Below, in pieces: positions 27,669-45,441 of a stretch of 64,000 bases of DNA. The stretch spans positions 68,655-132,654 of the forward strand of contig JACPIH010000002.1 of the NCBI GenBank assembly GCA_016188155.1, read 5' to 3'. Positions within the stretch are counted from its first letter, which is position 1, and each line of letters starts with the position of its first letter. The notes beneath the pieces were generated by a model. The model saw only the letters and a program-made list of their open reading frames with translations, made no database searches and was not told where the DNA came from. This DNA is from Candidatus Woesearchaeota archaeon (GTDB taxonomy: Archaea > Nanobdellota > Nanobdellia > Woesearchaeales > UBA10216). Position numbers and translations under genes: made by a program.

Positions 27669-28322
27669 ATGATGGAAGTAAATCTTTTGGATTTGTATCC
27701 AAAAACCAAGCGTAATCCGGACGAACGTGCCGAAACTATAAATGATGAAGACAAGAGAATTGCAAAACAGTTTGGCAAGGAATTTTTTGATGGCTCCAGA
27801 AATACGGGTTACGGGGGCTACAGGTATGATGGCCGGTGGGTTCCGGTAGTTGAGCGCTTTGCCCAGCACTACGGCTTAACCGCAGGCAGCTCAGTTCTTG
27901 ACGTTGGCTGCGCAAAGGGGTTTATGCTGCACGACTTTCAGAAGGCAGTCCCGGGCATTACCGTCGAGGGCATTGACATTTCCCAGTATGCGATTGACAA
28001 TGCTATGGAGGGCGTTAAGCCGTTTCTTCACGTTGGTAATGCAAAGGACCTTTCCAGCTATGGCGATAAGTCTTTTACCCTGGTGGTCTCAATTACCACG
28101 GTTCACAATCTCAGGCTTGCAGACTGCAAAATGGCCTTAAGGGAAATCCAGCGTGTTGGCAAGCATGCCTTCATAACCGTAGATGCGTGGCGCAATCCTG
28201 AAGAGGAAGCCAGGATGAAGAAGTGGAACATCACGGCAGAGACTTTCATGCATGTTGATGACTGGAAAAGGCTATTTGATGAGGTTGGCTATACGGGGGA
28301 TTACTACTGGTTTATTCCCTGA
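27669..28322 (+). CDS. class I SAM-dependent methyltransferase
   Basis: VLDVGCAKGFML…EGIDIS motif I/II. Confidence 0.7.
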   Translation: MMEVNLLDLYPKTKRNPDERAETINDEDKRIAKQFGKEFFDGSRNTGYGGYRYDGRWVPVVERFAQHYGLTAGSSVLDVGCAKGFMLHDFQKAVPGITVEGIDISQYAIDNAMEGVKPFLHVGNAKDLSSYGDKSFTLVVSITTVHNLRLADCKMALREIQRVGKHAFITVDAWRNPEEEARMKKWNITAETFMHVDDWKRLFDEVGYTGDYYWFIP

Positions 28323-28350: not shown

Positions 28351-29412
28351 ATGAGATTTAAAGCAGCTGTTCTTTACGAACAAAACAAGCCTTTGGTAAT
28401 TGAGGAGCTTGAAACGCAAGCGCTTGGGCACGGCCAGGTACTGGTGAAAATTCTCTACAGCGGCATTTGCCAAACGCAGGTTAACGAAGTAAAGGGCATA
28501 AAGGGCCCTGACAAGTACATACCTCACTGCCTTGGCCACGAAGCGTCAGGCATAGTTCATGAAATCGGCCCCGGCGTAACCCGTATCAGGCCGGGTGATT
28601 ACGTTGTTCTGTCATGGATAAAGGGCCCGGGCCTTGAAGTCCCATCAATGCAATATTTGCGGGGCGCCTCTAAAATAAACGCTGGCGCAGTAACCACATT
28701 TAACACGTTTTCCGTGGTTTCGGAAAACCGCATTACTAAAATTCCAAAACAGGTTCCAGCTGACGTTGCTGCGCTGCTTGGCTGCGCTGTCCCTACCGGT
28801 GCGGGAATGGTGAAGAATACCCTAAAAGCAGAGCCTGGCAGCAGCATTGCAATTTTCGGGCTTGGCGGTGTTGGGCTGAGTGCCGTATTGTTCGCAAGTG
28901 CGGTTGGCTGTGCCAAAATTATTGCTGTTGATATTCACGACTCAAAACTGGAGCTTGCGAAAAAGCTTGGTGCGACACATGTCATAAACAGCGCCAATGA
29001 GCAGGCTCTGGAAAAAATAAGGGCACTCACCGGGGGACTTATTGGGTCCGGTGCCGATTATGCAATTGAATCTTCTGGAGTAAGAGAGGTAATGGAGCTG
29101 GCATTCGAAGCCGTAAGATTCGGCGGCACCGCTGTGCTTGCAGGCAATATACGAAAGGGAGACAAGATTGCCATTGACCCGTACGCCCTTATACACGGGA
29201 AAAAGATTATTGGGACATGGGGCGGCGAAACTCGTACCGATGAGGACATACCTTTCTATGCCGAACAGTACTTGCAGGGCAAATTGAAAATTGACCAGCT
29301 AATTACGCACCGCTACAAACTTGAGGATATTAATGCGGCATTTACAGAACTTAAAGATGGCACTATGGGCAGGGCGCTGATAAAGCTTGGCGAAAAGCCT
29401 GATGAAGCGTAG
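28351..29412 (+). CDS. zinc-dependent alcohol dehydrogenase-family (MDR) oxidoreductase
   Basis: CLGHEASGIVHEIGPGVT…; GLGGVGL Rossmann. Confidence 0.75.
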   Translation: MRFKAAVLYEQNKPLVIEELETQALGHGQVLVKILYSGICQTQVNEVKGIKGPDKYIPHCLGHEASGIVHEIGPGVTRIRPGDYVVLSWIKGPGLEVPSMQYLRGASKINAGAVTTFNTFSVVSENRITKIPKQVPADVAALLGCAVPTGAGMVKNTLKAEPGSSIAIFGLGGVGLSAVLFASAVGCAKIIAVDIHDSKLELAKKLGATHVINSANEQALEKIRALTGGLIGSGADYAIESSGVREVMELAFEAVRFGGTAVLAGNIRKGDKIAIDPYALIHGKKIIGTWGGETRTDEDIPFYAEQYLQGKLKIDQLITHRYKLEDINAAFTELKDGTMGRALIKLGEKPDEA

Positions 29413-29445: not shown

Positions 29446-30291
29446 TTACGGTGCGTTCCTGTGCCTTCTCAACTTGTACATGTTGCTGTCGGACTTAAGC
29501 TCGGCAGCCAATAAGCTGCTTTCTGCGCCTTTCCACTTGTCGTGAACTACTGAAAAGTTCCTGCCGCTTGCTACGCCTCTCCCTTGGGCTTGCAGCCAAT
29601 TGATGCACCCGTAAATGTCATCCATACTTGTGCCTCCACCCTCCTGCTTCATAAACTCAACAGTTTTTTGGTAATTAATGGCACCAGCCCTTTCCTCGCC
29701 AGCCTCAAGCGTTTGGTAATGCGTTTTGCTCTTTGTCCAGCCAGGCCCCACAATGAATACGTTAAGGTCTTTTGCTTCATCATCCAACAGTTCGCACATT
29801 TTTATTAACATTATTTTTGAAGCCACATAAGCGGAGTAATTCGTGAATGGGTTATTAGCTCCAGGACCGGCAAAGAAGACAGCAGCGGCGCCTGTTTTAT
29901 TTCTATACGGGTAAAGGCCGTGCAGCACGCGCAGCTGTTCTATCGCGTTTACATGAACAGACTCGCTCCAATAGTCAAAATCAATGTCAAAGAATTTGCC
30001 TATCGGGTTTGGGGTGCCGGCACACGAAATAAAAATGTCCCAAGGAAGGTTCAGGGCAGCATACGCCTTCAAAAACGCTGATACCTGCTCTTTTTTGGCA
30101 ATATCACAAGGGAACAAACGGCAGTTCGGCAGCTTTTTAAGGCCATTGAGATGCTCTTCAGAGCGGTAAGTTCCTATTATCGCATACCCGTCTCTAGCGT
30201 ACCTAAATGCCAGTTCCCTGCCTATGTCACTGCTAATGGAGCTTAAAACTACAACCTTAATGGTAGACATGCTAGCCATGTTTGGAGACAA
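29446..30291 (-). CDS. short-chain dehydrogenase/reductase-like protein
   Basis: YSAYVASK (YxxxK) active-site motif; degenerate N-terminal Gly motif. Confidence 0.5.
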   Translation of the reverse strand: MSPNMASMSTIKVVVLSSISSDIGRELAFRYARDGYAIIGTYRSEEHLNGLKKLPNCRLFPCDIAKKEQVSAFLKAYAALNLPWDIFISCAGTPNPIGKFFDIDFDYWSESVHVNAIEQLRVLHGLYPYRNKTGAAAVFFAGPGANNPFTNYSAYVASKIMLIKMCELLDDEAKDLNVFIVGPGWTKSKTHYQTLEAGEERAGAINYQKTVEFMKQEGGGTSMDDIYGCINWLQAQGRGVASGRNFSVVHDKWKGAESSLLAAELKSDSNMYKLRRHRNAP

Positions 30292-30292: not shown

Positions 30293-30973
30293 TTAAATCA
30301 GCCCTCCCCTTCTTGAAAGTTCTTGAAAGTCGTTAACATCTATTTTTGAAAGGCTGTCAACGATTTTGTCAGCAATGGAAACATCCTGGTTCTTTGTGTG
30401 CTCTGTGAGCAGGGCTATGCACACCATGCCAGCATTTTTCGCTGCCAAAATGCCTGTTTCGGAGTCTTCTACTACAACGCATTCGTCTGGCTTCAGCTTA
30501 AGCCTTCCCGCAACCTCGAGGTAGATGTCTGGCGCAGGCTTGGTTTTTGTTACGTCCGAGCCCGTGACTACAGTCACGAATGTGTTTCCCAGCTTCAGAA
30601 AGTTCAGGACATTCCACACCTTTGTTTTTGAGCTGCTTGAAGCCAGGGCAACAATGTAGTTGTTAGCTCTCAGCTTTGCAACGAGCTCGTGGAAGCCAGG
30701 GTTTGGCTTAAGGTTGAGTTCCTCTATGGCTTTTTTGATGTACTCCTCGCGTTTTGCCACGAGCGCTTCAAGGTCGGCTGTGACCCCGTGCTGTTTTAAA
30801 ATTTCGTCGTAAATCTGCCTTCCAGGCTTGCCTGTGTGCTTTAGGTATTCGCCTTTGCTGATGTTCAGACCAACGCTGTTCAGCACCTTTGAGTCAGCGA
30901 CGAAGTTGAGCTGCGCAGTGTCTACAACAACCCCATCCATGTCAAAGATTACGGTTTTTATCATGCTAATCAC
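30293..30973 (-). CDS. HAD-IA hydrolase (beta-phosphoglucomutase/phosphatase family)
   Basis: VIFDMDGVVVDT motif I; 226 aa. Confidence 0.8.
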   Translation of the reverse strand: MISMIKTVIFDMDGVVVDTAQLNFVADSKVLNSVGLNISKGEYLKHTGKPGRQIYDEILKQHGVTADLEALVAKREEYIKKAIEELNLKPNPGFHELVAKLRANNYIVALASSSSKTKVWNVLNFLKLGNTFVTVVTGSDVTKTKPAPDIYLEVAGRLKLKPDECVVVEDSETGILAAKNAGMVCIALLTEHTKNQDVSIADKIVDSLSKIDVNDFQELSRRGGLI

Positions 30974-31155: not shown

Positions 31156-32262
31156 GTGGTGGGTGAAGTCTGCGTGAGGAAACTGTTTATCCCTGGGCCT
31201 GTTCAGGTGAGCAGGCGAGTTCTGGAGGAAATGGCCAGGCCGATGATGCACCACAGGTCTGCAGAATGCATAGCAATCATCAAAGAAATTAAGGGGTTGC
31301 TGTCGGATTTCCTTTATACCAACAATGATATTTTTCTGCTGACGTGCTCTTCGACAGGTGCTATGGAAGCCAGTATGCGAAGCTGCGTGGTTGGGAGCGT
31401 GTTGTGCGTCGCGAATGGCGAATTCGGAAGAAGGTGGCATTCCATAGCTGTTTCAAACGGCAAAGAGGCAAAGCTTTTGGATTTCGGTGATGGTAAATTA
31501 ATTGATTACAGCTTGGTAGCCGAGGAGTTAAGGAAAGGCGGTTTTGACGCGGTTGCTTTTGTAGTCAATGAAACCTCTACAGGCATGGAAAACGATTCTA
31601 AAGCGCTCAAAAAGGCTGTTCAGTCTGTTTCGAAAGACATCATTATCTTGGCGGATGGCGTTTCAGCCGTGTTCGGAACTATGCTTGACATAGACGACTA
31701 CGATGTACTCCTGTTTGCAACTCAGAAGGCACTCGCATTGCCTCCTGGCATGGCTATCATAATCGCGAATGACAAGGCAATTGAGCGTTCGAAGGCTGTT
31801 AAGGACAGGGGGTATTACTTTGACTTTCTTAACCTGAAAAAGCGGAGCGACGAGAACATGACCATAACAACGCCAGCCCTGCCCATAATTTACGCCCTAA
31901 GGTATCGCCTGCAAGAGATAAAGAAGCACGGCATTAACAGCTACATTGAGAACCACAATGCCAAGGCTGAGCTTGTCCGCAAGGAAATTCGCAAAATGGG
32001 CTTCGGGCTTTTCGTGCCAAGCAGCTATTCAAACACAGTCACTGTTATTTCCAACAACCTTGGCATTGACGTTGAGAAACTGATCAGGCTTCTTGGCGAA
32101 AAAGGATTCGCTATAGAAAACGGCTATGGCCCGTTGAAGAACAAAACATTCCGCATAAGCCACATGGGCGATATCACTTCCGAAGATACTAAGCAGTTGT
32201 TAAAAGAAATGGGAAAAATAATCAAAACTCTAACGTCTGAGCATAAGCATGAAACAGGTTAA
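31156..32262 (+). CDS. class V (PLP) aminotransferase, serine-pyruvate/alanine-glyoxylate family
   Basis: LFIPGPVQVSRRVLEEMARPMMHHRS N-terminus typical of class V AT. Confidence 0.65.
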   Translation: MVGEVCVRKLFIPGPVQVSRRVLEEMARPMMHHRSAECIAIIKEIKGLLSDFLYTNNDIFLLTCSSTGAMEASMRSCVVGSVLCVANGEFGRRWHSIAVSNGKEAKLLDFGDGKLIDYSLVAEELRKGGFDAVAFVVNETSTGMENDSKALKKAVQSVSKDIIILADGVSAVFGTMLDIDDYDVLLFATQKALALPPGMAIIIANDKAIERSKAVKDRGYYFDFLNLKKRSDENMTITTPALPIIYALRYRLQEIKKHGINSYIENHNAKAELVRKEIRKMGFGLFVPSSYSNTVTVISNNLGIDVEKLIRLLGEKGFAIENGYGPLKNKTFRISHMGDITSEDTKQLLKEMGKIIKTLTSEHKHETG

Positions 32263-33316
32263 GGTTTTTGCACCTGCGACTATAGCAAATATTGGTCCAG
32301 GGTTTGACATATTTGGGGTCGCGCTTTATAATATCGGCGACGTTGTAGAAGCAAGGTTAACTGATTCTTTTAAAGGCGTTAGGCTGGCAGAGGTAACGGT
32401 TGCGTCTGACAGCGCAGGCGTTAAAGACATGCCTAAGGATGAAGGCAACCTTGTTTTTCCTGTTGCCAAGCTCATCTACGAGGCAATTGGCAATCATGAA
32501 GTTGGGGTTGAAATCAGGCTTGTCAAGAGGATGGGCATAGGAACAGGGCTTGGCAGCAGCGCCTCAAGCTCTGTTGCTTCTGCTGTTGCAGTTAACGAGG
32601 TGCTTGGCGGTATTTTAGCCCGTGATAGCGTGAAGATGCTGGCTGCTGTTATTGAGGGCGAGTACATTGCTTGCGGCTCAAGGCACGCTGATAATGTTTT
32701 TCCAAGCCTGCTCGGCGGTTTAGTCTTTGTTGAAGACGCTGCCTCTTTTAAGTTCAAAAAATTCGGGGTTGGAAAGGACGCGTTCTTTGTCATTGCCTCT
32801 CCCGACTTGGTTGTGAGCACTCGAGAAGCCAGGGAAGCCCTGAAGGCTTCGCCTTACAACATTAAGGAGCTTGTAAGGTTTTCAAGCTCAACTGTAAAGC
32901 GCTTCATTGAATCTGGTACAGGCAGCCGCTTTAATGCCCAGATACCGGATTCTGTAGTGGGCAGCGGCTCAAGAAGCGTTGTCAAGGCCTACATTGAGGG
33001 AACTCTGGATGTTTTAAGCGGGCTGCTTAATAATGATGTTGAAGCGCTAGGCAGGGGCACGCTGAAGGATGGCATTGTGACGCCTGTGCGTGCCAAACTG
33101 ATTCCGGGTTATGATGCAGTTAAGGAGGCTGCACTTGGGGTAGGTGCCAAGGGCTTCTCTATATCCGGCTCAGGCCCTTCTGTTTTCGCAGTTGCTTACA
33201 AGGAAGACTGTGAGAAAGTGAAAAATGCCATGTTGGGCGCTTTTGAAAGGCACAAGATAACGGCAAAAGGGCACATTTCTGCAGTGAACAACAACGGCGC
33301 CTTGGTTGTTGAGTAA
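32249..33316 (+). CDS. GHMP-family kinase (homoserine-kinase-like N-terminal motif)
   Basis: VFAPATIANIGPGFD and MGIGTGLGSSASS GHMP motifs. Confidence 0.6.
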   Translation: MKQVKVFAPATIANIGPGFDIFGVALYNIGDVVEARLTDSFKGVRLAEVTVASDSAGVKDMPKDEGNLVFPVAKLIYEAIGNHEVGVEIRLVKRMGIGTGLGSSASSSVASAVAVNEVLGGILARDSVKMLAAVIEGEYIACGSRHADNVFPSLLGGLVFVEDAASFKFKKFGVGKDAFFVIASPDLVVSTREAREALKASPYNIKELVRFSSSTVKRFIESGTGSRFNAQIPDSVVGSGSRSVVKAYIEGTLDVLSGLLNNDVEALGRGTLKDGIVTPVRAKLIPGYDAVKEAALGVGAKGFSISGSGPSVFAVAYKEDCEKVKNAMLGAFERHKITAKGHISAVNNNGALVVE

Positions 33317-33445: not shown

Positions 33446-35218
33446 ATGAAGCTGTCTGACTATGTCATAGAGTTTTTGGTGCAGCGTGGCGTTAGGCACG
33501 TTTTTCTTATATCCGGAGGAGCGGTTGCGCACCTTGTTGATTCTGCTGCCAGGAACCCAAAAATTACGTATGTTTGCCCAGAGCACGAGCAGAATGCCGG
33601 AGCAGCTGCTGACGCTTATTCAAGAATTACGGAGAACTTAGGCGCCGTCCTTACCACGAGCGGGCCTGGTGCCACTAACCTTGTGACGAGCGTTTGCAAT
33701 TCCTATTTTGACTCAATTCCTGTTATTTTCATCACAGGCCAGGTTGCAACATTTCGCATAAGACCCAACGAGAGGCTTCGCCAGAAGGGTTTTCAGGAAA
33801 CTGATGTTATTTCAATATTTAAGTCAATCACTAAGTACGCAACACAGCTTAGGAAGGCAGAGGACATTAAATGTGTCCTTCAGGAAGCAGTCTATGCAGC
33901 CACGTCAGGGCGCATGGGCCCTGTCCTAGTTGATATTCCAGATGACATTCAACGCGCCGAGATTGACCCTGATAAGCTACGTGAATTTGTTCCCCCCTCT
34001 GCTCACGCTAACAGCGATTTTTCGGCTGTTAAGGACATTTTTGCGGCAATAAGGTCTGCAAAAAGGCCTGTCCTGATTCTCGGAGCCGGCGTGAGGCTTT
34101 CTGGAACAATCCTTGAAGCTTTGAAGTTTGCAGAATACTTCCGAATTCCTCTCCTGCTTACCTGGGGAGCGACGGACATCGCAGAATACAGCCATGAGCT
34201 CAACATGGGCGGTCTTGGGGTTTGCGGCCCAAGAGGGGGTAACTTTGCAGCCCAGACATCAGACCTTGTTGTTGCACTTGGAACAAGGCTTTCACAGATG
34301 ATCACAGGCGGTAAGCAGAACCTTTTTGCACCTAACGCTAAGAAAATCATGGCAGACATTGATCCTGAAGAGCTTAACAAGTTCGGTCCGAATGATGTTG
34401 TTCTCGACTTGAAGATTCAGTGTGACTTGAGGGAGTTCTTTGCGGAGTGTGAAAGGCTCTACACCCCTGGCGAGAAGGACAGATTTATGGAATGGAGGCA
34501 GCAGATTAATGAATGGCGGAGAATATACCCAACCTGTCCTCAATCAAACTATGAAAAGAAGGAAGGTGTTGACGCCTATGTCTTCGTAAAGGAGCTTTCT
34601 AAGGCCGCAAATGAGGGGGATATGATATTTACCGATGCGGGCGGCAACCTGAGCCAGACCATGCAGGCCTTTGAGGTCAAGAAAAGGCAGCGGCTCATCT
34701 CCGCCTGGAACCACTCACCCATGGGCTATTCACTTCCTGCATGCATCGGTGCCGCATTTGCCCTCAGCAAGGACAGCAGCAATAACATCCTTTGCATCAT
34801 TGGCGATGGCGGTCTGATGCTGTGCCTCGAGGAGCTTTCCGTAATTGTGAAGCACAAGCTGCCGATCAAGATATTTATTTTCAACAACCACGGCCACGGA
34901 ATCCAGAAGCAGACTCTTGACACGTGGCTGAACTCTCACTACGTGGCTGTAGACGAAGCTTCTGGCCTCGCCTTTGCTGATTTTGACAAAATAGGCCCAG
35001 CTTTCGGACTTCCGACCGTTATCATAAGAAACCACGAAGAACTTAAGGCAAAACTCGACCAGGTTCTTGACATGAGAGGGCCTGTTTTGTGCAACGTTAA
35101 AATTGCTGTTGACCAGAGGATTGTGCCCATGCTCAAGTTTGGCGCAGGGCTCGAGGACCTTGACCCGAAGTTGCCAAGGGAGGATATAGAGTCTATCATG
35201 GCGATTGTTAAGGGTTAA
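33446..35218 (+). CDS. thiamine-diphosphate-dependent enzyme, acetolactate-synthase-large-subunit-like
   Basis: 590 aa; N-terminal TPP_enzyme_N pattern (GGAVAHLVDSAA…TSGPGATNLVT…), C-terminal GDGG…NN TPP-binding. Confidence 0.75.
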   Translation: MKLSDYVIEFLVQRGVRHVFLISGGAVAHLVDSAARNPKITYVCPEHEQNAGAAADAYSRITENLGAVLTTSGPGATNLVTSVCNSYFDSIPVIFITGQVATFRIRPNERLRQKGFQETDVISIFKSITKYATQLRKAEDIKCVLQEAVYAATSGRMGPVLVDIPDDIQRAEIDPDKLREFVPPSAHANSDFSAVKDIFAAIRSAKRPVLILGAGVRLSGTILEALKFAEYFRIPLLLTWGATDIAEYSHELNMGGLGVCGPRGGNFAAQTSDLVVALGTRLSQMITGGKQNLFAPNAKKIMADIDPEELNKFGPNDVVLDLKIQCDLREFFAECERLYTPGEKDRFMEWRQQINEWRRIYPTCPQSNYEKKEGVDAYVFVKELSKAANEGDMIFTDAGGNLSQTMQAFEVKKRQRLISAWNHSPMGYSLPACIGAAFALSKDSSNNILCIIGDGGLMLCLEELSVIVKHKLPIKIFIFNNHGHGIQKQTLDTWLNSHYVAVDEASGLAFADFDKIGPAFGLPTVIIRNHEELKAKLDQVLDMRGPVLCNVKIAVDQRIVPMLKFGAGLEDLDPKLPREDIESIMAIVKG

Positions 35219-35330
35219 CTGGGCTTACCGCAAACAATATAAATTTATAAAGTCAGTTCAATGTGTAATTCAATGTGTAATGATAAGCTGATGCTGTAAG
35301 CTAAGGCTAAGTTGTGAATGGGCTGCTGGG

Positions 35331-36473
35331 ATGGATTTACTTGTTGCGAAGGGAAGGGACCTTAAGAAGGAGGAGTTTCATGACAAGCATGAGGCTTTTA
35401 CCGACAAGGCATACGCGGATGGCGACCTGCTGCCTGACAGGTATGTGTTTGTGCTCACCAACCTCTGCAACCTAAGGTGCAGTTTCTGCTTTCAGAAAAA
35501 GGACCCCAGGAAAGATGCCATGACTACCGAGGGCTGGATTAGCCTTGCAAAGCAGCTTCCTGAATACGCCAGGGTGACAATGACAGGCGGGGAGCCGTTG
35601 GCGTTTCGCGGCTTTAAAGAAGTGTTTTCCTACGTGGCTGAGCGTTTTGACTGCAACATGGTTTCAAACGGGTTGCTCTGGAAGGAGGAATTGGTTGATT
35701 TTGTCCTCTCGTATCCAAAATTCAGGGTGCTTTCCATTTCGATAGACAACATTGGCAACACGCTGAGGGACGTGAGCCCCAACCAGTGGAAGCGAGCTGA
35801 AGAGATGATGAGGTACTTTGTTAAAAAGCGGGATGAGCTCAATTCCGGCTGCGTGCTGGAGGCCAAAACAGTAGTGCTGGATGATAATGCCGAGGATTTG
35901 CTTGCAATTCACAAATACTGCATTGAAGAGCTTGGCTGCGACCACCACTCCTTCCAGTTTCTGAAGGGCTCGCCAATCCAGCACGCTGATTTTATGTTCC
36001 AATTTGAGGATATTTTGAAAGAGTCCCATGCCGTTACTTACAAAAAATTTGATATCATAAAGCAGCAGTTGGATCTGGTAAGAAAGTACAACCTTAAAAC
36101 AGGAAAGGTTGCCTTCTCGCACCCCATCATCGGCTCGTTGATGTCAGAAAATCCCCTTCCGAACATTTCATACCTGAATGAGAGCAGGCACATTAAGGGA
36201 AATTACATGCCCTGCAAATTTCCGTGGTCAAGCGTGCATATTAATGTTGACGGAAACCTTTTTCCGTGCATGGCAGTTTCAATGGGAAATGTTAAGGAAA
36301 CTCCCCTTCGTGACATAATATTTGGCGAGCAGTTTACGAGGTTTAAGCGGCTTATAAGGGACGAGGGCACTGTTGAGGGGTGTAACCGCTGTGGCTGGCT
36401 AAGGCCAATTCCGAACCTGCGGCAGCAGGAGCCGGAAAAGCAGGTGCAAGTGGCTGTGTCGGAAAGTGAATGA
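35331..36473 (+). CDS. radical SAM protein with SPASM/twitch-like C-terminal Cys cluster
   Basis: CNLRCSFC (CxxxCxxC); C-terminal CKFPW…CMAV…GCNRCGW. Confidence 0.75.
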   Translation: MDLLVAKGRDLKKEEFHDKHEAFTDKAYADGDLLPDRYVFVLTNLCNLRCSFCFQKKDPRKDAMTTEGWISLAKQLPEYARVTMTGGEPLAFRGFKEVFSYVAERFDCNMVSNGLLWKEELVDFVLSYPKFRVLSISIDNIGNTLRDVSPNQWKRAEEMMRYFVKKRDELNSGCVLEAKTVVLDDNAEDLLAIHKYCIEELGCDHHSFQFLKGSPIQHADFMFQFEDILKESHAVTYKKFDIIKQQLDLVRKYNLKTGKVAFSHPIIGSLMSENPLPNISYLNESRHIKGNYMPCKFPWSSVHINVDGNLFPCMAVSMGNVKETPLRDIIFGEQFTRFKRLIRDEGTVEGCNRCGWLRPIPNLRQQEPEKQVQVAVSESE

Positions 36474-36476: not shown

Positions 36477-37379
36477 ATGCCAAAGAAAGTTGTTATTCTT
36501 GGCGCGTCTGGATTCGTCGGCGGCTGGCTGCTGAAGCGGTTCCTGTCAGATTCGCCGTATACGGCGGTTGGTTACTCATCTGCGGATTGCAACCTGCTCT
36601 CCCCGGGCTCGATTCGCAAAGCACTGTCATCTGTCACTTCAGAAGACGTTATCGTTATGCTGTCGTGCATTACACGCCTTAGGGAAAATTCGTTTGAGTC
36701 CATGCTTAAAAACATCAAGATGGCAGACAACATTGCCTGTTTTGTCGAGAGCCATCCTGTGTCCCATTTTATTTACTTTAACACTGTTGACGTTTATGGG
36801 CTGATTCCGGAGGGGACTGTTATAAGTGAGAGTCTTCCGCCAAATCCGCATGATTACTACTCAATTTCCAAGCTTACAAGCGAGTTTATTCTTAAAAAGG
36901 CGTTATCGGAGAAGAATATACCTTTCCTTTCGCTGAGGTTTTCCGGAATTTACTGCCCTGGCGATGAGGGAAAAAGTACTATCAACGCCTTGTTATATTC
37001 CCTTTTTGACACAGGAAAAATCACAATCTTCGGTGACGGGAAGAGTACCAGGGATTTTGTATACGTTGATGACGCTTACAGGATAGTGGAAGAGGCTGTC
37101 AAGCGGCCATTGAACGCAACTGTGAACGTAGCTACCGGGAAAAGTTATTCAATTCTTGAAGTAATAGAAACCATTAAGTCATTAATCGATAAAAAATTCA
37201 CTATCGAGTTCAAGCCAATAGACTCCAAAGCCGAGAAAAGGCAAGGGAATATGGTGCATGATATTTCCCTCTTTCAGAAGTTGTTTCCCAATTTCGTTTT
37301 TACAAGCCTTAAAGCAGGACTGTCCCGGAACATCAAGCACATTACAAGCATTACGAGCATTACAAGCAAAAAAGATTAA
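36477..37379 (+). CDS. NAD-dependent epimerase/dehydratase family protein
   Basis: KVVILGASGFVGGWL; YYSISK; C-terminal ITSITSITS encoded by 9-bp tandem repeat. Confidence 0.65.
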   Translation: MPKKVVILGASGFVGGWLLKRFLSDSPYTAVGYSSADCNLLSPGSIRKALSSVTSEDVIVMLSCITRLRENSFESMLKNIKMADNIACFVESHPVSHFIYFNTVDVYGLIPEGTVISESLPPNPHDYYSISKLTSEFILKKALSEKNIPFLSLRFSGIYCPGDEGKSTINALLYSLFDTGKITIFGDGKSTRDFVYVDDAYRIVEEAVKRPLNATVNVATGKSYSILEVIETIKSLIDKKFTIEFKPIDSKAEKRQGNMVHDISLFQKLFPNFVFTSLKAGLSRNIKHITSITSITSKKD

Positions 37380-38533
37380 ATCCTGTCAAATTCCTTTTTC
37401 AGTTCTGCGTAATTTTTGCATGTAACGTCAATGTATGCGGCACCAACATTTTTTGCAAACAACGCATCATCTTCGCTATCGCCTATTATGACGACCTTGT
37501 CAAAATCGCTGATGCTTATTCGCAACTCTTGAAGAGCATGGAGGAGCATACTAGGGCTGGGCTTCCTTCTCGTTTTTTTCTTTACAAAATCCGGATTGAA
37601 TTTAACTTCTTTTCGCAGGGCAGCATAGCTTGCATCAGCATCTGGGCAGTACTGCCAGCTGTCTATTGCAATCCCTTCTTCTTTCAATAACTTGCCTATG
37701 TGCCTGTTTACTTTTTCCACAGTTTCTGTGCCAAAATAGCCCCGCGCAACCCCTTGCTGGTTTGAAATTACCACCTTGACCGTGTCGTATTTTGTTTGTA
37801 CATAGCTGATAAGGTTGGTAACGTCTTTTTTTAGCCTTATCTGCTTTTCCCATAGCTTCTCTTTGCCGAGGAATGGCACATTTTCTATCAGGGTTCCGTC
37901 CCTGTCTATTCCCAACAGGAGCTTTTCCCGCTTTACTTTTTCCTGTATGTACCTGATTACATCTGTTGTCGACAGCTTCTCGTCATTTGTGTACCTGATT
38001 TCACCGCCTGCTGAGGTTATAGCCTCCCTCTCTGCGGTAATTCCTGGCGTTGTCTTGCCTATGAAATCTGGGCCTTTTATGTAATAAGACGGCTTCAGCT
38101 TTTCTATTACCTCAGTTGCACGCTCGAGGTCGCTGATAAACACGTAATCGACATACTCAATGCTTGCAACAGAGTAGGCCCGCAGTTTCTCTGAAAAGAT
38201 TGGCCTGCCGCTGCCTTTCCTTGCCGCCACGAATCTGTCCGAAGTCACAGATACGAAAAGACAGTCACACAGTTTTTTTGCTGACTCAAAGTGTTTAATG
38301 TGACCCGGATGCAAAAAGTCAAAGCCGCCGGCGCAAAGGCCTGCTTTTTTGTTTTGCCTCTTCAATTCAGAAATCCTCTTGGCCGCCGTGCCTATATCCA
38401 CTATTTTCTCAGACTTGAATTCATCAGTGTTTGCTTTCATAGTCTCCCAATCATCTTTCCTTGTCACTTTTGGCCGCCACCGCTTCAGCTTCCGAAATAA
38501 GCTCTGAAGAACATCTTCGGTATTGCTATGCAA
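37376..38533 (-). CDS. bifunctional protein: N-terminal cytidylyltransferase-like nucleotidyltransferase (RfaE/HldE domain II-like) fused to C-terminal HAD-IIIA GmhB-like heptose-bisphosphate phosphatase
   Basis: GGFDFLHPGHIKHFESAKKLCDCLFVSVTSD (HxGH nucleotidyltransferase); LLGIDRDGTLIEN, RKPSPSML, IGDSEDD (HAD-IIIA/GmhB); alternative start ATG at 38440 avoids overlap with upstream gene. Confidence 0.65.
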   Translation of the reverse strand: MHSNTEDVLQSLFRKLKRWRPKVTRKDDWETMKANTDEFKSEKIVDIGTAAKRISELKRQNKKAGLCAGGFDFLHPGHIKHFESAKKLCDCLFVSVTSDRFVAARKGSGRPIFSEKLRAYSVASIEYVDYVFISDLERATEVIEKLKPSYYIKGPDFIGKTTPGITAEREAITSAGGEIRYTNDEKLSTTDVIRYIQEKVKREKLLLGIDRDGTLIENVPFLGKEKLWEKQIRLKKDVTNLISYVQTKYDTVKVVISNQQGVARGYFGTETVEKVNRHIGKLLKEEGIAIDSWQYCPDADASYAALRKEVKFNPDFVKKKTRRKPSPSMLLHALQELRISISDFDKVVIIGDSEDDALFAKNVGAAYIDVTCKNYAELKKEFDRI

Positions 38534-39195
38534 ACCCCAATAATGTTCTTTACCCTGAAAATGTTTGTCGCCGAGCCCTCCTCCTCCTGAATCAGCACTG
38601 GCACCTCAAGGTAAGAATGCTTCTGCTTGCTCTTAAGCAACTGAAGTAATACCTCTGCATGAAAAGCAAAGCTGCTTGTTGTTATTTTAACCTGCCTGGC
38701 CAGGCTGAGCTTATAAAGTGCCAGGCCGTTATAGTACTTTACGTTCAGGCCAAATAGTAAATTCAGCATGGTTGTATAAAGGGTTGAAACAAGTCTCCTT
38801 ACAATTGGCCTTACTTCAGGATTCATAGTATAGGAATTCAGAATGTCGGCATCACCTATCCTTCCAAGCATCCGCGCAATAGATTCTGCCGGTATTCCGT
38901 TATCGCCTGTCAGCAACATAATGTATTCTTTAGTGGCAAGCCTTATGGCTTCCCTGTACACCGCACCCGGCCCGCGGTTCGTTTTAAAATGAACTACCCT
39001 TATTCTTGGGTTCCTTTTGGCAAAATCTTCTGCAATTGCGCCTGAACTGTCCCTGCTACCGTCGTCAATTACGATTAGCTCATAATCAGCAACAAAGCGT
39101 TTTACAGTGTCATTTATAGTTGTAATTGAGTTGCCTAAGTTACGCTCCTCGTTGTAGGCTGGTACTATCAGGGTTATTGATGCCGCTTTTTTCAT
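38485..39195 (-). CDS. glycosyltransferase family 2, dolichyl/polyprenyl-phosphate sugar synthase-like (Dpm1/ArnC-type)
   Basis: ITLIVPAYNEERNL…LIVIDDGSRD…; 236 aa; paralog of 47754..48536. Confidence 0.75.
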   Translation of the reverse strand: MKKAASITLIVPAYNEERNLGNSITTINDTVKRFVADYELIVIDDGSRDSSGAIAEDFAKRNPRIRVVHFKTNRGPGAVYREAIRLATKEYIMLLTGDNGIPAESIARMLGRIGDADILNSYTMNPEVRPIVRRLVSTLYTTMLNLLFGLNVKYYNGLALYKLSLARQVKITTSSFAFHAEVLLQLLKSKQKHSYLEVPVLIQEEEGSATNIFRVKNIIGVCIAIPKMFFRAYFGS

Positions 39196-39307: not shown

Positions 39308-41191
39308 TCATATTTTGTATATCCTTATTCTGTTCCTATGGTACAGCAGATTGGCTTGAGCTTCGTCCTCTGTCAGGTTGTGCACCAACGTAATGGCTTT
39401 GCTGCCATTAATGGTGTTTCTGTATATGTCAAATAAGTCATCATTAATTAGGATGTGACTGATGTTGAGATCCTTCAGCCGCCTTAATAAGTCTGTAGTA
39501 TTGCTCATGCTCCAGTAGTCGATGTAATTCTGGTGGGGTGAGCTTATAACGTATTCCCTGTTTAGGAAATAGCCCCTTGGCTCGTTAAACAGCAGCACTA
39601 CAGAATCTGGTGTTGTGTTGGCATTTATCCAGGAAGCTGCGCCGTGAGCGTTGTAGTCTTTAAGCTGGTCATAGTATTCACCTTCACTTTCTCCAGACAA
39701 AAAGTAGTTGACACTCTTCGCGTTTATACCATACCATATTGCGGCATTAAATGCTAGCGAAACTATAAGCATCAAGAAAATGGCTGCTTTTAGTATCCTA
39801 TACTTGGACATTGAATCAATAACCATGGCTGTGGCCGCGCTTAACAAGGCTATTCCTGGGAACATGTACCTCAGCACAGGGTGGACCCAGAACTGTACCA
39901 TAAGGATGGCCGTGGCCATTACAAAGATTATGCTCCACGCTCTTATGTCCTTAACACCCTTGTAAAAGAAAATCAGCAGGGGTATTATCATGATGAAGAA
40001 TGGCGTGAGACCGATAACGGTGCCAAACGGCTTGCTGTTGAAGGTTATGTTCCAGTGCACAAGCAGGACGTTGGCCATGTTTTTGCCAAGGCCGACATAC
40101 TTATGATACGCTTCGTACGCGATGTCGTGCGAGGGCAAAAGGTAGTTCCCGCCAAAGATGCTGTGGCCTAAGGGGTAAACAGGGTTGCCTGTGTGAATGT
40201 AGCTTCTTGCGAGCCAGGGCATAGTGAGAAGCAGCACAACAGCAGCCAGCAGGAAAATCTCGATGCACGCTTGTTTTACGTTGACCTCTTTCTTGTACAG
40301 CAGCCTCGACAGCACCATGCCTATTACAAAGGCAAAGGCAACAAAGACGCCTGTCAGCTTTACAGCCGTTGCTAATCCTATCAGAATTCCGCATAACAGC
40401 GTCAGCAAAATTCTTCGGCGGCTGTCACTTTCATGGGCGTACTTGAACAGGACCAGGACAGCTGCGAGGAAGAAGTAAGCCACGCTTATGTCAACCATTG
40501 TCTGCGGCAAGCGCTCAATCATCACAGGCGCTGTAAAAAAAAGCAGAACCCCTGTTATCGCTGCTGATTCTGAGCTTTTTTTCCTGATAAGCGCGTATAT
40601 CGCGAGGCTAGCGAGGATGCCGAACGAGTAAGCTATGAGGGGCGAAAGATTTGGCGTTGAGAAAAGCTCTGAGATTGTGTACAGCATCGTCATGCCTTGT
40701 GGCATCGTTGTGTACATCTGGCTTGGCTGGTAAACGAGGCTGTGGCTACCGGCGTACACTTTCGCAAACGCGAGATGGTAAACCATTGAGTCAAACTCGT
40801 ACACTGGCGAAAGGGCGGGGATAAAGTTGATAAGTACGAAAAATATGCACGCGAGGAGCAGCACGCCAGCCAGGGTTGGCTTTAGCGTTTGCCTAATGTA
40901 TTTGCCAAGCAACATGGCAAGCTGGCAGAAGCGCTTTACTTCTTTGAAAAAAAGCACAACAGCTACTACGGCCATTGCGATGTAAAATCCACTGTAAAGC
41001 AGCTTGAACGTGCCTAGCAGGATTGTCAGGTTCATTATAACGCCTGCCCCTAATGCAACGCTGATGAGAAATTCCTCAAGTTTGCCAAGGTCTGTTTTGA
41101 ATATTGCAAGTATTCTCCTGCCGATGCTAAAAGTAACCACTAAAAATATGAGCAGCATGGTAAGGCTTACAATGGAAATTAGCAAAGACAA
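39308..41191 (-). CDS. GT-C fold membrane glycosyltransferase (ArnT/PMT-like, GT39/GT83-type), TTG start in current frame
   Basis: 627 aa, about 12 TM helices then about 180-aa C-terminal soluble domain; no WWDYG (not STT3/AglB). Confidence 0.55.
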   Translation of the reverse strand: MSLLISIVSLTMLLIFLVVTFSIGRRILAIFKTDLGKLEEFLISVALGAGVIMNLTILLGTFKLLYSGFYIAMAVVAVVLFFKEVKRFCQLAMLLGKYIRQTLKPTLAGVLLLACIFFVLINFIPALSPVYEFDSMVYHLAFAKVYAGSHSLVYQPSQMYTTMPQGMTMLYTISELFSTPNLSPLIAYSFGILASLAIYALIRKKSSESAAITGVLLFFTAPVMIERLPQTMVDISVAYFFLAAVLVLFKYAHESDSRRRILLTLLCGILIGLATAVKLTGVFVAFAFVIGMVLSRLLYKKEVNVKQACIEIFLLAAVVLLLTMPWLARSYIHTGNPVYPLGHSIFGGNYLLPSHDIAYEAYHKYVGLGKNMANVLLVHWNITFNSKPFGTVIGLTPFFIMIIPLLIFFYKGVKDIRAWSIIFVMATAILMVQFWVHPVLRYMFPGIALLSAATAMVIDSMSKYRILKAAIFLMLIVSLAFNAAIWYGINAKSVNYFLSGESEGEYYDQLKDYNAHGAASWINANTTPDSVVLLFNEPRGYFLNREYVISSPHQNYIDYWSMSNTTDLLRRLKDLNISHILINDDLFDIYRNTINGSKAITLVHNLTEDEAQANLLYHRNRIRIYKI

Positions 41192-41444: not shown

Positions 41445-42494
41445 ATGGATAGGGCGAAAGCAGAAGCTATTGAAAGAATAAGGTCACAGTATTCACTCGA
41501 GCGTTTAAAACAAATGCTTGATAAATTTAGAAATTTGAAAATCCTGGTGATTGGCGATGCCATCATAGACGAGTATCATTTCACTACCCCGAAAGGCAGG
41601 GCAGTAAAGGACCCTATCCTTTCTGTCGACTACATTAAGCACGAGGCCTATGCAGGTGGAGTGTTTGCCATAGCAAACCACTTGAGTGATTTTGCAGATA
41701 GCGTTACTTTGCTTACAATGCTTGGAGACAGGGACGACAGGAAAGATTTTATTGCCAACGCACTCAACAAGAATATAGTTACTAAATTTTTTGTCAAACA
41801 AAATTCTCCTACGACAGTTAAAAAGCGGTATTTGAATGCCCTTCGAAATGAAAAGCTGTTCAAGGTCGAATACCTAAACGATGCCCCCATATCGGAGGAA
41901 CTTGAAAGAAGCATACTCAACTTCTTGATTGAGGAACTGCCTAAATTTGACTTGGTCGTGGTAGGTGATTTTGGCCACAGCCTCATTACAGAAAACATGA
42001 TAAACGTGTTGGAGGGAAAATCAAATTACATCACCGTAAACGTCCAATCCAATAGTGCAAATCTCGGTTTTAACTTTGTTACAAAGTATAAATCCCCAAA
42101 TTACGTCACTATGGACATACCTGAGCTTCAATATGCCGTGTCTGACAGATTCAACGAAGTGCCTGTGCTGGCTGCAAAGCTTTATGCCAAGACGCGTTTC
42201 AAAAAATTTTTGGTAACAATGGGCGGGGCCGGCGCTGGCTACTTCAATGCGGGCAGACCAACATTTTTCCCTGCATTTGCGAGCAGGCCGCTGGACGTTG
42301 TTGGCGCTGGCGATGCGGTTTTTTCCATTACCTCACTGCTCGCTTACTGCAATTACGATGAGCTAATACCATTTATTGCCAATTGTGTTGGCGGCATTGC
42401 CGTTTCCTACATGGGAAACAAGGAGTACATAACAAAAAAGAAGCTGCTTGACTTTATTGAGCAAGTTTACAACGGGGATGTTCATATGCAGTAA
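41445..42494 (+). CDS. PfkB-family carbohydrate kinase, RfaE/HldE domain I-like (candidate heptose-7-phosphate kinase)
   Basis: ILVIGDAIIDEYHF…AYAGGVFAIANHL…; C-terminal VVGAGDAVFS (GAGDA PfkB motif). Confidence 0.6.
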   Translation: MDRAKAEAIERIRSQYSLERLKQMLDKFRNLKILVIGDAIIDEYHFTTPKGRAVKDPILSVDYIKHEAYAGGVFAIANHLSDFADSVTLLTMLGDRDDRKDFIANALNKNIVTKFFVKQNSPTTVKKRYLNALRNEKLFKVEYLNDAPISEELERSILNFLIEELPKFDLVVVGDFGHSLITENMINVLEGKSNYITVNVQSNSANLGFNFVTKYKSPNYVTMDIPELQYAVSDRFNEVPVLAAKLYAKTRFKKFLVTMGGAGAGYFNAGRPTFFPAFASRPLDVVGAGDAVFSITSLLAYCNYDELIPFIANCVGGIAVSYMGNKEYITKKKLLDFIEQVYNGDVHMQ

Positions 42495-42531: not shown

Positions 42532-43623
42532 TCAGAAAGGCCCTGTGAAGCTCGGGTCTGGCACGTCCAGATATTTTGGCTCTTTTTTCTCTTCTTCTTC
42601 AATAAGCTCCCCTGCTTTGTCGCGTTTTCCAACCATTTCGCAGGCTGTTTTTATGACATCGGTGTGCCTCGGATAATAGTAGTTGGCAAGTGCCGGCGTG
42701 GATGGCGTTGGTATGTCGGGGGATGTGATTCTGCGGGGAGCGACAATCATATGGTCAAACGCCTCTTCTGAAACTCGCGCTACGACATCTCCTGCAAGGC
42801 CTACAGAGTAATAGCCCGAGTCTGCAACTAGCAAGCGCCCTGTTTTTTTGACTGATTCAATGATTTTTCCGTAATCAAGCGGCTTTACAGTTCGGATGTC
42901 TATGACCTCTGCTGATATCCCTGCTTTTTCCAAAACGGTTGCAGCCCTCAAAGCCTCCACAGCCATGTAGGAGGTTGCCGCTATTGTAATGTCGGTTCCT
43001 TTTCGTATCACGCTTGCCGCACCAAGAGGGACTGTGTAGGGCTCCTGAGGCACATACCCTGTCATGCTGTGCAGCCACCTGTGCTCTATGAATATTACCG
43101 GGTTGTTGTCCTGTATGCTTGCCATTAATAGGCCTTTGGCATCGTGTGCCGTGCTTGGCATCACTACCTTTAATCCTGGTATGTGGGCCAGAATGGCTTG
43201 CAGGTTTTGCGAGTGCTGGGCTCCCTGTCCCCAGCCCCTTCCGATTACTGCCCTGATTACCAAGGGGACCTTCATTTGGCCGCCAAACATGTAGTGCCAC
43301 TTTGCAGCGTTATTGACAAGCTGGTCCATCGCCAGCAGCAAGAAGTCAATGCGCTGGTGCACCATTATGGGCCTCATGCCCTGAATTGCAGCTCCTATGC
43401 AAACGCCGGTGACTCCCCCTTCTGATAGCGGCATGTCCAGCACCCTCATTTTGCCGTACTTTTCGCGCAGGCCCTTGGTTGTGCCGAAAACGTGTTTCGG
43501 GTCGGGAACGCCCTCGCCGATAATGAAAACAGAAGGATCCTCTTCCATGCTTTGGTCTATTGCTTCCTGTATCGCTGCAGCATAAGTTATTTCTCTTGTC
43601 CGCTCAACGTCTCTTTCAGCCAT
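42532..43623 (-). CDS. TPP-dependent 2-oxoacid dehydrogenase E1 component beta subunit (transketolase-like C-terminal)
   Basis: E1-beta-like pattern (…MPLSEGGVTGVCIGAAIQGMRPI…); acidic C-terminal tail. Confidence 0.75.
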   Translation of the reverse strand: MAERDVERTREITYAAAIQEAIDQSMEEDPSVFIIGEGVPDPKHVFGTTKGLREKYGKMRVLDMPLSEGGVTGVCIGAAIQGMRPIMVHQRIDFLLLAMDQLVNNAAKWHYMFGGQMKVPLVIRAVIGRGWGQGAQHSQNLQAILAHIPGLKVVMPSTAHDAKGLLMASIQDNNPVIFIEHRWLHSMTGYVPQEPYTVPLGAASVIRKGTDITIAATSYMAVEALRAATVLEKAGISAEVIDIRTVKPLDYGKIIESVKKTGRLLVADSGYYSVGLAGDVVARVSEEAFDHMIVAPRRITSPDIPTPSTPALANYYYPRHTDVIKTACEMVGKRDKAGELIEEEEKKEPKYLDVPDPSFTGPF

Positions 43624-45429: not shown

Positions 45430-45441
45430 ATAGCACCAAAT

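Follow-up and report, generated by a model that had tools for sequence, protein, structure and literature searches.

Does an archaeal gene annotated as 'acetolactate synthase-like' serve amino-acid metabolism or the chemistry of an unusual sugar? We addressed this question for a 64,000-nucleotide stretch of DNA from a Candidatus Woesearchaeota archaeon (GCA_016188155.1, contig JACPIH010000002.1, positions 68,655 to 132,654; hereafter the window), in which a gene for a thiamine diphosphate (ThDP)-dependent enzyme is followed by a gene for a radical S-adenosylmethionine (SAM) protein. An original prediction, made from the sequence alone, had assigned both to branched-chain or modified sugar chemistry, and had placed the two open reading frames (ORFs) exactly: both are on the plus strand with ATG starts and encode 590 (33446-35218) and 380 (35331-36473) residues. 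Because each protein has hundreds of homologs at 54-82% identity, both ORFs are real genes and not chance ORFs. We favor, with moderate confidence, an explanation in which a YerE-like carboligase encoded in a conserved cassette makes a C-branched surface sugar, with tailoring by the radical SAM protein and the short-chain dehydrogenase/reductase (SDR) encoded after it as an optional addition.

The ThDP enzyme contains the TPP_enzyme_N, TPP_enzyme_M and TPP_enzyme_C domains (Pfam, E values 1e-29 to 3e-35), and a 31-sequence alignment shows that it keeps the catalytic Glu (HEQ, residues 47-49) and the IGDGG...NN ThDP motif. The large subunits of acetohydroxyacid synthase (AHAS) are its top curated families (E 6e-114), but it scores 381.4 bits on TIGR00118 against a cutoff of 538.35 and is likewise below the cutoffs of the other AHAS models. 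In the alignment, the AHAS motif RF(D/S)DR, whose final Arg we take to bind the carboxylate of the acceptor keto acid, is replaced by RLSQM in the window protein and across its family. The Trp of the GMVxQW motif (W586) is replaced by Thr (GIQKQT), as it is in JanthE, and RLSQM together with GH(G/A)IQKQT forms a signature of this subfamily. A 6-residue insertion before RQKGFQE is found in the window family, in JanthE, in 5ahk/PpYerE and in a Clostridial sugar-cluster group, but not in AHAS or Gcl. Among proteins of known structure, JanthE ranked first (8rph, 308 bits), followed by 5ahk (280 bits) and E. coli AHAS I (274 bits); 5ahk, although its PDB entry is titled acetolactate synthase II, is presumably PpYerE, the YerE homolog of Pseudomonas protegens.

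The position of the enzyme relative to IlvB and YerE was examined in a neighbor-joining tree (200 bootstraps; 31 sequences, of which just four are AHAS and one is an outgroup). The window family grouped with JanthE in 99% of bootstraps, and these grouped with 5ahk/PpYerE and the Clostridial group in 100% (100% and 100% in an earlier version of the tree). E. coli IlvB and IlvI, yeast AHAS and a genuine Woesearchaeota IlvB (locus L097, 31% identical to the window enzyme) all fell outside this YerE-like clade. The IlvN and IlvC of L097 had no match in the window by tblastn. Scores below the AHAS cutoff, a window free of ilvN and ilvC and a position in the YerE-type clade support the sugar reading over one in amino-acid metabolism, and the ThDP enzyme is best regarded, on its sequence, as a YerE relative grouped apart from AHAS. 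Sulfoacetaldehyde acetyltransferase, glyoxylate carboligase and pyruvate oxidase were also considered and rejected, as the enzyme scored far under each cutoff.

The reaction catalyzed by YerE and its relatives is the decarboxylation of a 2-oxo acid followed by its addition to a nucleotide-linked keto-sugar, from which branched sugars such as yersiniose, erwiniose or caryophyllose arise (PMC9306805, PMC12247030), and JanthE is a characterized ketone-accepting YerE-like enzyme (PMC12188165, PMC12247030). With the YerE-like lyases (YpYerE, PpYerE/5ahk, ErwE, MMAR_2332, MyGE and JanthE/8rph) the window enzyme has in common the three-domain decarboxylase-superfamily fold, the catalytic Glu, GDG...NN, the 6-residue insertion and the loss of the AHAS Trp, at an identity of about 35-40% (a rough estimate from the alignment and not a computed value). 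It also resembles them in lying in a surface-glycan cluster with an adjoining short-chain reductase, as YerF adjoins YerE. It differs from them in its own signature, in its usual E1alpha/beta partner and in its archaeal and uncultured-phylum hosts, and the window locus has neither ddhABCD-type genes for CDP-3,6-dideoxy-4-keto-glucose nor an aldolase for donor synthesis. With the AHAS large subunit (IlvB/IlvG/IlvI) it shares the superfamily, the domain order, the FQE motif and about 31% identity to Woesearchaeota IlvB; it is unlike AHAS in its score below cutoff, the missing small subunit and ilvC, the lost acceptor Arg and Trp, the extra insertion and its place outside the clade.

Both genes lie, in keeping with the nucleotide-sugar setting that had been proposed for them, within a surface-glycan island of about 35 kb (16-51 kb) that encodes RmlA/RmlB, a GDP-mannose dehydratase, a UDP-glucose dehydrogenase, a Wzx-like flippase, several glycosyltransferases and ArnT-like GT-C enzymes. 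To define which neighbors are conserved, we scanned one genome per species and obtained 31 related loci with a ThDP protein at least 50% identical (53-82%) to that of the window. These loci come from at least seven phyla, with hosts among the Woesearchaeota, Omnitrophota, Planctomycetales, Chlamydiales, Gottesmanbacteria, Nitrospirales and Neomarinimicrobiota and a gammaproteobacterial metagenome-assembled genome; the relatives at 53-66% identity belong to Omnitrophota, Planctomycetales, Chlamydiales, Patescibacteria (candidate phyla radiation, CPR), Nitrospirales and others. Partners were counted by comparing the 31 island proteins of the window with all ORFs of the loci (coverage at least 0.5, E at most 1e-8, within 10 kb), and the 18 loci in which the ThDP gene is flanked by 5 kb or more in both directions were treated as a well-flanked subset.

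The commonest conserved partners of the ThDP enzyme (Table 1) include a second ThDP enzyme of a sugar-branching type, the E1alpha/beta pair, and not the radical SAM protein. In L003, L017 and L020 the genes follow one canonical order, namely extended SDR (Epi), E1alpha, E1beta, classical SDR, ThDP enzyme, methyltransferase, Zn-dependent alcohol dehydrogenase (Zn-ADH) and family 2 glycosyltransferase (GT2). L013 and L015 run from Epi through E1alpha, E1beta and SDR to the ThDP gene, then GT2 and methyltransferase, with no ADH found; L032 has the cassette without the SDR, and the L035 contig ends within the ThDP gene. The classical SDR homolog is usually directly upstream of the ThDP gene in the related loci, and the GT2 homolog sits at the 3' end of the cassette. 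Among the well-flanked loci, 12 of 18 have E1alpha/beta and 13 of 18 the methyltransferase. All canonical parts are present in the window, with the partners 3-10 kb outside the region on which the original prediction had concentrated. When the same comparison was made for 45 loci of a more distant group, only the GT2 (6 loci, about 25% identity) and the generic extended SDR (13 loci, about 26%) were matched among these partners. As listed, the window ORF for this extended SDR begins at a TTG and shares about 100 nt with the upstream gene, and its Pfam match begins at residue 42; the true start probably lies downstream of the TTG.

The E1alpha protein has the E1alpha subunits of pyruvate dehydrogenase (PDH) and branched-chain keto acid dehydrogenase as its closest PDB matches, and a Pfam scan of 59 window ORFs revealed no E2, E3 or lipoyl domains. 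Two ways of placing a two-carbon branch on a sugar have been described, one through YerE and the other through stand-alone E1alpha/beta pairs, namely AviB1/B2, Pau11/12 and those for aldgamycin and kibdelomycin (PMC4425429, PMC12247030). By analogy, the window pair is a candidate two-carbon sugar-branching enzyme of the AviB1 type. Like the known alpha-keto acid dehydrogenase (alpha-KADH2) pairs (AviB1/B2, Pau11/12, AlmDI/DII and KbDH), it is encoded by neighboring E1alpha and E1beta genes, unaccompanied by E2/E3, in a nucleotide-sugar cluster that also encodes aminotransferases and reductases. Unlike them, it is conserved together with a YerE-like enzyme in loci for cell-surface glycans, whereas the known pairs act alone and come from actinomycete antibiotic clusters.

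The radical SAM protein does carry the C-terminal SPASM/twitch Cys cluster originally described (Radical_SAM E 7e-15; SPASM, PF13186, E 5e-12). We aligned 30 bacterial and archaeal family members, 52-82% identical to the window protein. The three Cys of the radical SAM CX3CX2C motif (CNLRCSFC; C46, C50 and C53) are invariant, and exactly four further Cys are invariant at the C-terminus (C295, C313, C351 and C354); the protein is therefore predicted to bind a single twitch-type auxiliary [4Fe-4S] cluster, and it lacks the complete 7-Cys SPASM motif. In profile searches, the family matched BtrN in two stretches, the best of which is the twitch domain (residues 284-353; whole-sequence E 2e-8), and the core domain matched SkfB best. 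An AlphaFold2 model (pLDDT 88.9) retrieved generic SPASM/twitch neighbors from the PDB with Foldseek (TM 0.55-0.61), among them DesII, BlsE and viperin, which act on sugars or nucleotides; BtrN was not among the top 50 matches, and comparison of the modeled structure leaves the chemistry of the protein unfixed. With respect to subfamily, no curated maturase cutoff was reached (N_Twi_rSAM 67 against 170, SkfB 61 against 300 and W_rSAM_matur 54 against 380). Sugar C-methylation, one of the activities originally suggested, found no supporting evidence, and we rejected a B12-dependent version of it as the Pfam scan detected no B12-binding domain in the protein.

We inspected 13 other loci with this radical SAM family, four of which came from a metagenome scan with the radical SAM protein. 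In 12 of the 13 a ThDP enzyme is nearby, as E1alpha/beta, as the window ThDP family or as a split transketolase; the sole exception is L088, whose contig ends at the radical SAM gene. Most of these loci also carry nucleoside diphosphate (NDP)-sugar SDRs, and most an E1alpha homolog. A homolog of the extended SDR that follows the radical SAM gene in the window is directly downstream of it in 7 of the 13 (six loci with DNA and the JGI 3300072015 place, L005, L009, L033, L091 and L092 being among them) and elsewhere in the locus in four more (L037, L007, L087 and L090). In L005 this homolog forms a fusion with Transketolase_N, and in the JGI 3300072015 place with a methyltransferase. The window SDR has the YxxxK motif, with TVDVYG at the position of TDE, which we take to be a dehydratase motif that TVDVYG replaces.

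In common with BtrN (2-deoxy-scyllo-inosamine dehydrogenase), the window protein has the CX3CX2C core, a single 4-Cys auxiliary domain that matches the BtrN twitch, and a carbohydrate context; it is unlike BtrN in that its core is nearer SkfB and SuiB, it is 110 residues longer, and its presumed substrate is a nucleotide sugar and not an aminocyclitol. The NAD(P)-dependent SDR homolog directly after the radical SAM gene in 7 of 13 loci is reminiscent of AprD4/AprD3, a radical dehydratase and a reductase in which AprD3 follows AprD4 in function. A literature search on radical SAM, heptose and thiamine combined found nothing relevant.

The pairing of the ThDP and radical SAM genes that the original prediction emphasized stands as adjacency in the window, but we rejected it as an obligatory pair, since only 3 of the 18 well-flanked ThDP loci have the radical SAM gene and L006, L007 and L092 have the radical SAM gene without this ThDP family. 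The ThDP genes most similar to that of the window (81-83% identical) occur with the radical SAM gene in L009 and without it in L008, while L096 ends within the ThDP gene. The radical SAM protein is thus accessory to the cassette. Among its loci, L005 encodes an Epimerase-Transketolase_N fusion (11213-12982) and has three ThDP systems in one glycan cluster, namely E1alpha/beta, a split transketolase and a YerE-like enzyme. L091 (Pacearchaeota) has, within 21 kb, four B12-binding radical SAM proteins, three SPASM radical SAM proteins, two ThDP enzymes and a mini E1-like pair. In L092 an HldE-like fusion comes right after the radical SAM-SDR pair.

From the observed family assignment, lost AHAS features and conserved gene neighborhood, we infer a donor, an acceptor, an order of steps and a radical SAM chemistry as follows. 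The extended SDR of the cassette would generate a nucleotide-linked keto-sugar. The ThDP enzyme would decarboxylate a 2-oxo acid (pyruvate or a functionalized homolog) and add the acyl-anion equivalent to the carbonyl of the nucleotide-activated keto-sugar, giving a tertiary-alcohol, C-branched sugar. The stand-alone E1alpha/beta would be a second carboligase of the AviB1/B2 type, so that this pair, the YerE-like enzyme or both may add acyl-anion equivalents. The SDR and Zn-ADH may then reduce side-chain carbonyls, and the SAM methyltransferase may decorate the product, before the small GT2 loads the sugar on polyprenyl phosphate and an ArnT-like GT-C enzyme transfers it outside the membrane. 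Where present, the radical SAM protein and the SDR encoded after it would form an optional pair that tailors the same nucleotide sugar. The radical SAM protein would most likely abstract a hydrogen atom and oxidize or dehydrate a secondary alcohol of the sugar, by the logic of BtrN or of AprD4/AprD3, to give a keto or deoxy-keto intermediate that the SDR or a ThDP enzyme would then use; radical epimerization is a further candidate for this step. Because of the auxiliary cluster and the BtrN-like twitch, oxidation of an alcohol to a ketone is the single likeliest option for this step, and a tentative one.

Several points weigh against this scheme. Near-identical ThDP genes (81-83%) occur with and without the radical SAM gene, and with and without the aminotransferase and kinase genes discussed below; unless those genomes have copies elsewhere, neither is therefore an obligatory supplier of substrates for the ThDP enzyme. 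The radical SAM loci are modest in number (13), and an auxiliary cluster by itself does not separate dehydrogenase, dehydratase, epimerase and C-C-forming chemistry. E1alpha/beta is missing from 6 of the 18 well-flanked loci, and sequential action of the two ThDP enzymes is therefore not required. The canonical YerE acceptor route was not found: both DegT proteins of the window keep the catalytic Lys, which does not fit a His-type E1 dehydrase, and the Pfam scans revealed no DdhD-like reductase, so the acceptor must be a keto-sugar other than that of YerE. The ThDP tree is small and distance-based. Finally, the physiological substrate of JanthE, the nearest characterized relative, is unknown (PMC12188165).

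Upstream of the ThDP gene lie genes for an aminotransferase, a kinase and a haloacid dehalogenase (HAD) phosphatase. The original prediction had listed a GHMP kinase, a class V aminotransferase, HAD phosphatases and epimerases as flanking genes; all are present, the epimerases being SDRs, but the GHMP kinase is of the homoserine-kinase type and is not a sugar kinase. Both the kinase and the aminotransferase are enzymes of amino-acid type that occur only in the DPANN versions of the cluster. Their genes overlap by 14 nt, and 129 nt separate the kinase gene from the ThDP gene. Among related loci the trio recurs only in L008 and L096 (DPANN), both with the order methyltransferase, ADH, HAD (minus strand), class V aminotransferase, homoserine kinase, MT13, SDR and ThDP enzyme, while in L009, which is without the trio, a C-methyltransferase, a GDSL protein and an SDR occupy the gap. 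The trio is thus DPANN-specific and accessory to the cassette. Phosphonate biosynthesis, considered in view of PhnW-like aminotransferase matches and the ThDP enzymes, was rejected: no phosphoenolpyruvate mutase was found in Pfam scans of the ORFs at about 16.2-51.6 kb, and the aminotransferase is nearer the serine/alanine-glyoxylate transaminases. The kinase has an insertion of about 55 residues (about 200-254) relative to solved homoserine kinases, and the longer form (345-389 aa) is common to other Woesearchaeota homologs. A homolog of it at 47% identity sits in the genuine ilv/leu cluster of L097, whereas the window kinase sits in a glycan cluster. That cluster (Woesearchaeota, GCA_016211215.1) appears complete, with IlvB, IlvN, IlvC, IlvD, IlvE, LeuA, LeuB, LeuCD and a ThrB-type kinase, and is unusual in that DPANN are generally described as without amino-acid biosynthesis.

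It may be that the trio supplies the donor. Homoserine or O-phosphohomoserine would be transaminated to 4-hydroxy- or 4-phosphooxy-2-oxobutanoate, which the ThDP enzyme would decarboxylate and attach as a three-carbon hydroxylated branch before the phosphatase removes the phosphate. This is attractive because ErwE, MMAR_2332 and MyGE accept 4-hydroxy-2-oxobutanoate, and transamination of amino acids has been noted as a route to such donors (PMC9306805). The aminotransferase, kinase and ThDP genes are consecutive on one strand with the close spacing given above, the trio adjoins ThDP genes of 82-83% identity in L008 and L096, the kinase exceeds the homoserine kinase cutoff, and the aminotransferase resembles small-amino-acid:2-oxo-acid transaminases. 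However, the trio is missing from 30 of the 31 related loci, including L009 with its 81% identical ThDP gene; a cycle of phosphorylation and dephosphorylation is without a rationale, and the donor-pocket residues are not separable from phylogeny. Because the trio is dispensable among near-identical ThDP genes, we consider this donor role unlikely.

A bolder combination of these elements can be drawn, which we regard as rather unlikely as a whole. E1alpha/beta and the YerE-like enzyme would work one after the other on a single nucleotide sugar, which might derive from a heptose-type or 4-keto-pentose precursor, and the product would be a higher-carbon sugar, doubly branched or chain-extended, of a kind as yet undescribed. 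The radical SAM protein and SDR would supply the keto or deoxy-keto acceptor without a need for oxygen, homoserine would be converted in DPANN to a functionalized three-carbon donor through the aminotransferase and kinase, and the sugar would be a common surface decoration of Omnitrophota, Planctomycetota, Chlamydiota, CPR and DPANN.

A different division of labor would follow DesI and DesII, which produce a 3-keto-4,6-dideoxy sugar. A DegT aminotransferase and the radical SAM protein would act as such a pair, with radical deamination of a 4-amino-4,6-dideoxy sugar to this ketone, E1alpha/beta would branch it at C-3 (as in aldgarose), and the acetolactate synthase-like enzyme would be a mere neighbor. 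The block E1alpha-E1beta-Epi-DegT-DegT, at 42532-50282 in the window, occurs in L007 and L087 within about 10 kb upstream of the radical SAM gene and without this ThDP family, and DesII is among the Foldseek neighbors of the radical SAM model (TM 0.55-0.58). To our knowledge DesII has no auxiliary cluster, and the invariant 4-Cys twitch of the window protein speaks against the analogy, as do the E value of 0.33 for DesII in the radical SAM profile search, the scores of the DesI model (188 and 137 bits, where the cutoff is 650) and the several radical SAM loci without a nearby DegT (L006 and L092). Although branching by E1alpha/beta at C-3 of deoxysugars has been described (PMC12247030), we find this route improbable.

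A maturase of peptides or cofactors, SkfB-like or of the tungsten-cofactor type and unrelated to the sugar genes, is a very improbable identity for the radical SAM protein. Its core domain is closest in sequence and structure to SkfB and SuiB, maturases of ribosomally synthesized and post-translationally modified peptides (RiPPs), and it has a weak W_rSAM_matur match, but we rejected this role on scores far under every cutoff and on gene tables that show no precursor-peptide or RiPP context at any locus; the ThDP enzymes at 12 of the 13 other loci, mostly with NDP-sugar SDRs, and the fusion of its usual partner SDR to Transketolase_N also argue against it. Also very improbable is a genuine or catabolic acetolactate synthase that, with E1alpha/beta, SDR and ADH, would form an acetoin/2,3-butanediol pathway merely lying inside a glycan island: AHAS large subunits are the best curated families and these partners are also parts of acetoin metabolism (the SDR with a weak BudC match, 32.6 bits), but genuine AHAS was ruled out by the curated cutoffs, the lost acceptor Arg and Trp, the tree and a window without ilvN/ilvC, no E2/E3 domain occurs in the 59 Pfam-scanned ORFs, and GT2, NDP-sugar SDR and methyltransferase are always in the cassette across phyla.

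The cassette, conserved across several uncultured phyla, thus probably builds an unusual branched surface sugar. As it brings together both known types of branching enzyme and a radical SAM protein, the predicted sugar would be more elaborate than those of the yersiniose type. The occurrence of YerE-like enzymes in glycan clusters is well established, and a review cites an in-silico survey predicting more than 200 of them (PMC12247030). Judged without the cluster list of that survey, two features appear to be new: a distinct JanthE-related subfamily with its own sequence signature, and the systematic coupling of that subfamily to E1alpha/beta, two reductases, a methyltransferase and a GT2 in uncultured bacterial phyla and DPANN archaea. 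The optional twitch radical SAM/SDR and aminotransferase/kinase modules also appear to be new. Only a few Gram-negative O-antigens, mycobacterial lipooligosaccharides and actinomycete antibiotics are known to contain branched-chain sugars that ThDP enzymes make; if our explanation is correct, the cassette extends this chemistry to archaea and to several lineages that are uncultured and often ultra-small or associated with hosts, whose surface glycans probably mediate cell-cell attachment. The automatic label 'acetolactate synthase' inflates the branched-chain amino-acid biosynthesis predicted for DPANN and CPR genomes. The subfamily may also be a ready supply of carboligases that accept ketones and could make chiral tertiary alcohols, an application for which YerE-like enzymes are being actively sought (PMC12247030).

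Table 1. Genes of the window discussed in the text, in order of position. Homolog counts refer to the 31 related loci, with median identity to the window protein.
Feature	Coordinates	Strand	Evidence and conservation
Extended-SDR NDP-sugar epimerase/dehydratase, first canonical cassette gene	23501..24607	-	Epimerase family; homolog in 13/31 loci, median 52%
SIS-domain isomerase, GmhA-like	25592..26284	-	TIGR00441, 120 bits, below cutoff; homolog in 4/31 loci
SAM methyltransferase	27669..28322	+	Methyltransf_11/25; homolog in 19/31 loci, median 58%
Zn-dependent alcohol dehydrogenase (Zn-ADH)	28351..29412	+	ADH_N and ADH_zinc_N; homolog in 16/31 loci, median 52%
Classical SDR, candidate side-chain ketoreductase (YerF-like role)	29446..30291	-	adh_short; homolog in 19/31 loci, median 46%
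HAD-IA phosphatase	30293..30973	-	HAD_2, E 2e-36; about 80% identity, adjoining aminotransferase, in L008 and L096
Class V aminotransferase, serine/alanine-glyoxylate type	31156..32262	+	Aminotran_5; best PDB match P. horikoshii serine aminotransferase 2dr1, 188 bits
Homoserine-kinase-type GHMP kinase	32249..33316	+	NF002288, 252 bits against cutoff 194; best PDB matches homoserine kinases, two stretches
YerE-like (JanthE-related) ThDP carboligase, annotated 'acetolactate synthase-like'	33446..35218	+	Three TPP domains; below AHAS cutoff
Radical SAM protein, predicted single twitch-type auxiliary cluster, accessory module	35331..36473	+	Pfam Radical_SAM and SPASM
Extended-SDR epimerase/reductase, frequent radical SAM partner	36477..37379	+	Starts 3 nt after the radical SAM stop
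RfaE-domain-II-like nucleotidyltransferase fused to GmhB-like HAD-IIIA phosphatase	37376..38533	-	TIGR02199, 105 bits, and HAD-IIIA (C-terminal half); kept in L008 and L009
Small GT2, probable polyprenyl-phosphate sugar transferase	38485..39195	-	Glycos_transf_2; weak AglJ and PgfS matches; homolog in 19/31 loci, median 34%
PMT_2/ArnT-like GT-C glycosyltransferase	39308..41191	-	PF13231; 64% identical homolog in L009
PfkB kinase, RfaE-domain-I-like	41445..42494	+	TIGR02198, 121 bits, below cutoff; homolog in 8/31 loci
PDH-type E1beta	42532..43623	-	Transket_pyr and Transketolase_C; homolog in 17/31 loci, median 49%
PDH-type E1alpha (ThDP), stand-alone	43663..44640	-	E1_dh, E 1e-69, below PDH cutoffs; homolog in 15/31 loci, median 47%
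Two tandem DegT-family sugar aminotransferases	45442..47642	-	PF01041, E 8e-124 and 4e-105; catalytic Lys, SFHPLK in both

An Arn-like set for a lipid-linked sugar surrounds the E1alpha/beta genes (44706-45098, minus; 45070-45429, minus; 47496-48536, plus; 50290-51615, minus; 39308-41191, minus; 57311-58864, minus). It comprises two small EamA/SMR membrane proteins whose best curated matches are ArnE/ArnF, weak and below cutoff, a GT2 with a weak ArnC match, the two DegT proteins, a UDP-glucose 6-dehydrogenase and two PMT_2/ArnT-like GT-C enzymes. With the Arn (4-amino-4-deoxy-L-arabinose, L-Ara4N) pathway the window has in common the UDP-glucose dehydrogenase, DegT, small GT2s, an ArnE/F-like pair and ArnT-like GT-C; it differs in that all matches are weak and below cutoff, a formyltransferase and a deformylase are missing, ThDP enzymes are inserted and the host is an archaeon. 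By analogy with what has been proposed for eurekanate, a UDP-4-keto-pentose is a plausible acceptor for E1alpha/beta. A divergent set resembling the four steps to ADP-heptose is also scattered through the island, consisting of the GmhA-like, RfaE-I-like and RfaE-II/GmhB fusion proteins, all below curated cutoffs.

The Clostridial group used in the tree represents a second sugar-cluster ThDP family (L038-L083), 33-37% identical to the window protein and grouping with 5ahk. It is widespread, with hosts among Clostridia, Ruminococcus, Holdemania and Alistipes and one Methanomassiliicoccaceae archaeon. DegT genes are neighbors in 37 of 45 loci and GMD-like (GDP-mannose-dehydratase-like) genes in 35 of 45, a setting that resembles the classical 3,6-dideoxyhexose context of YerE, and these proteins are probably YerE-type branching enzymes of gut anaerobes.

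Outside the island, the window contains a lone 5S rRNA gene (52566-52681, plus strand, 66.6 bits), with no 16S or 23S gene in the window. The GC content is markedly lower at 6000-12000 (0.37-0.39) than around it (0.44-0.50). This low-GC stretch, just upstream of the glycan island, is the site of genes for giant proteins (4016-7300 and 10238-12601) that carry CARDB and PKD domains, are secreted or at the surface, and are possible targets of glycosylation.

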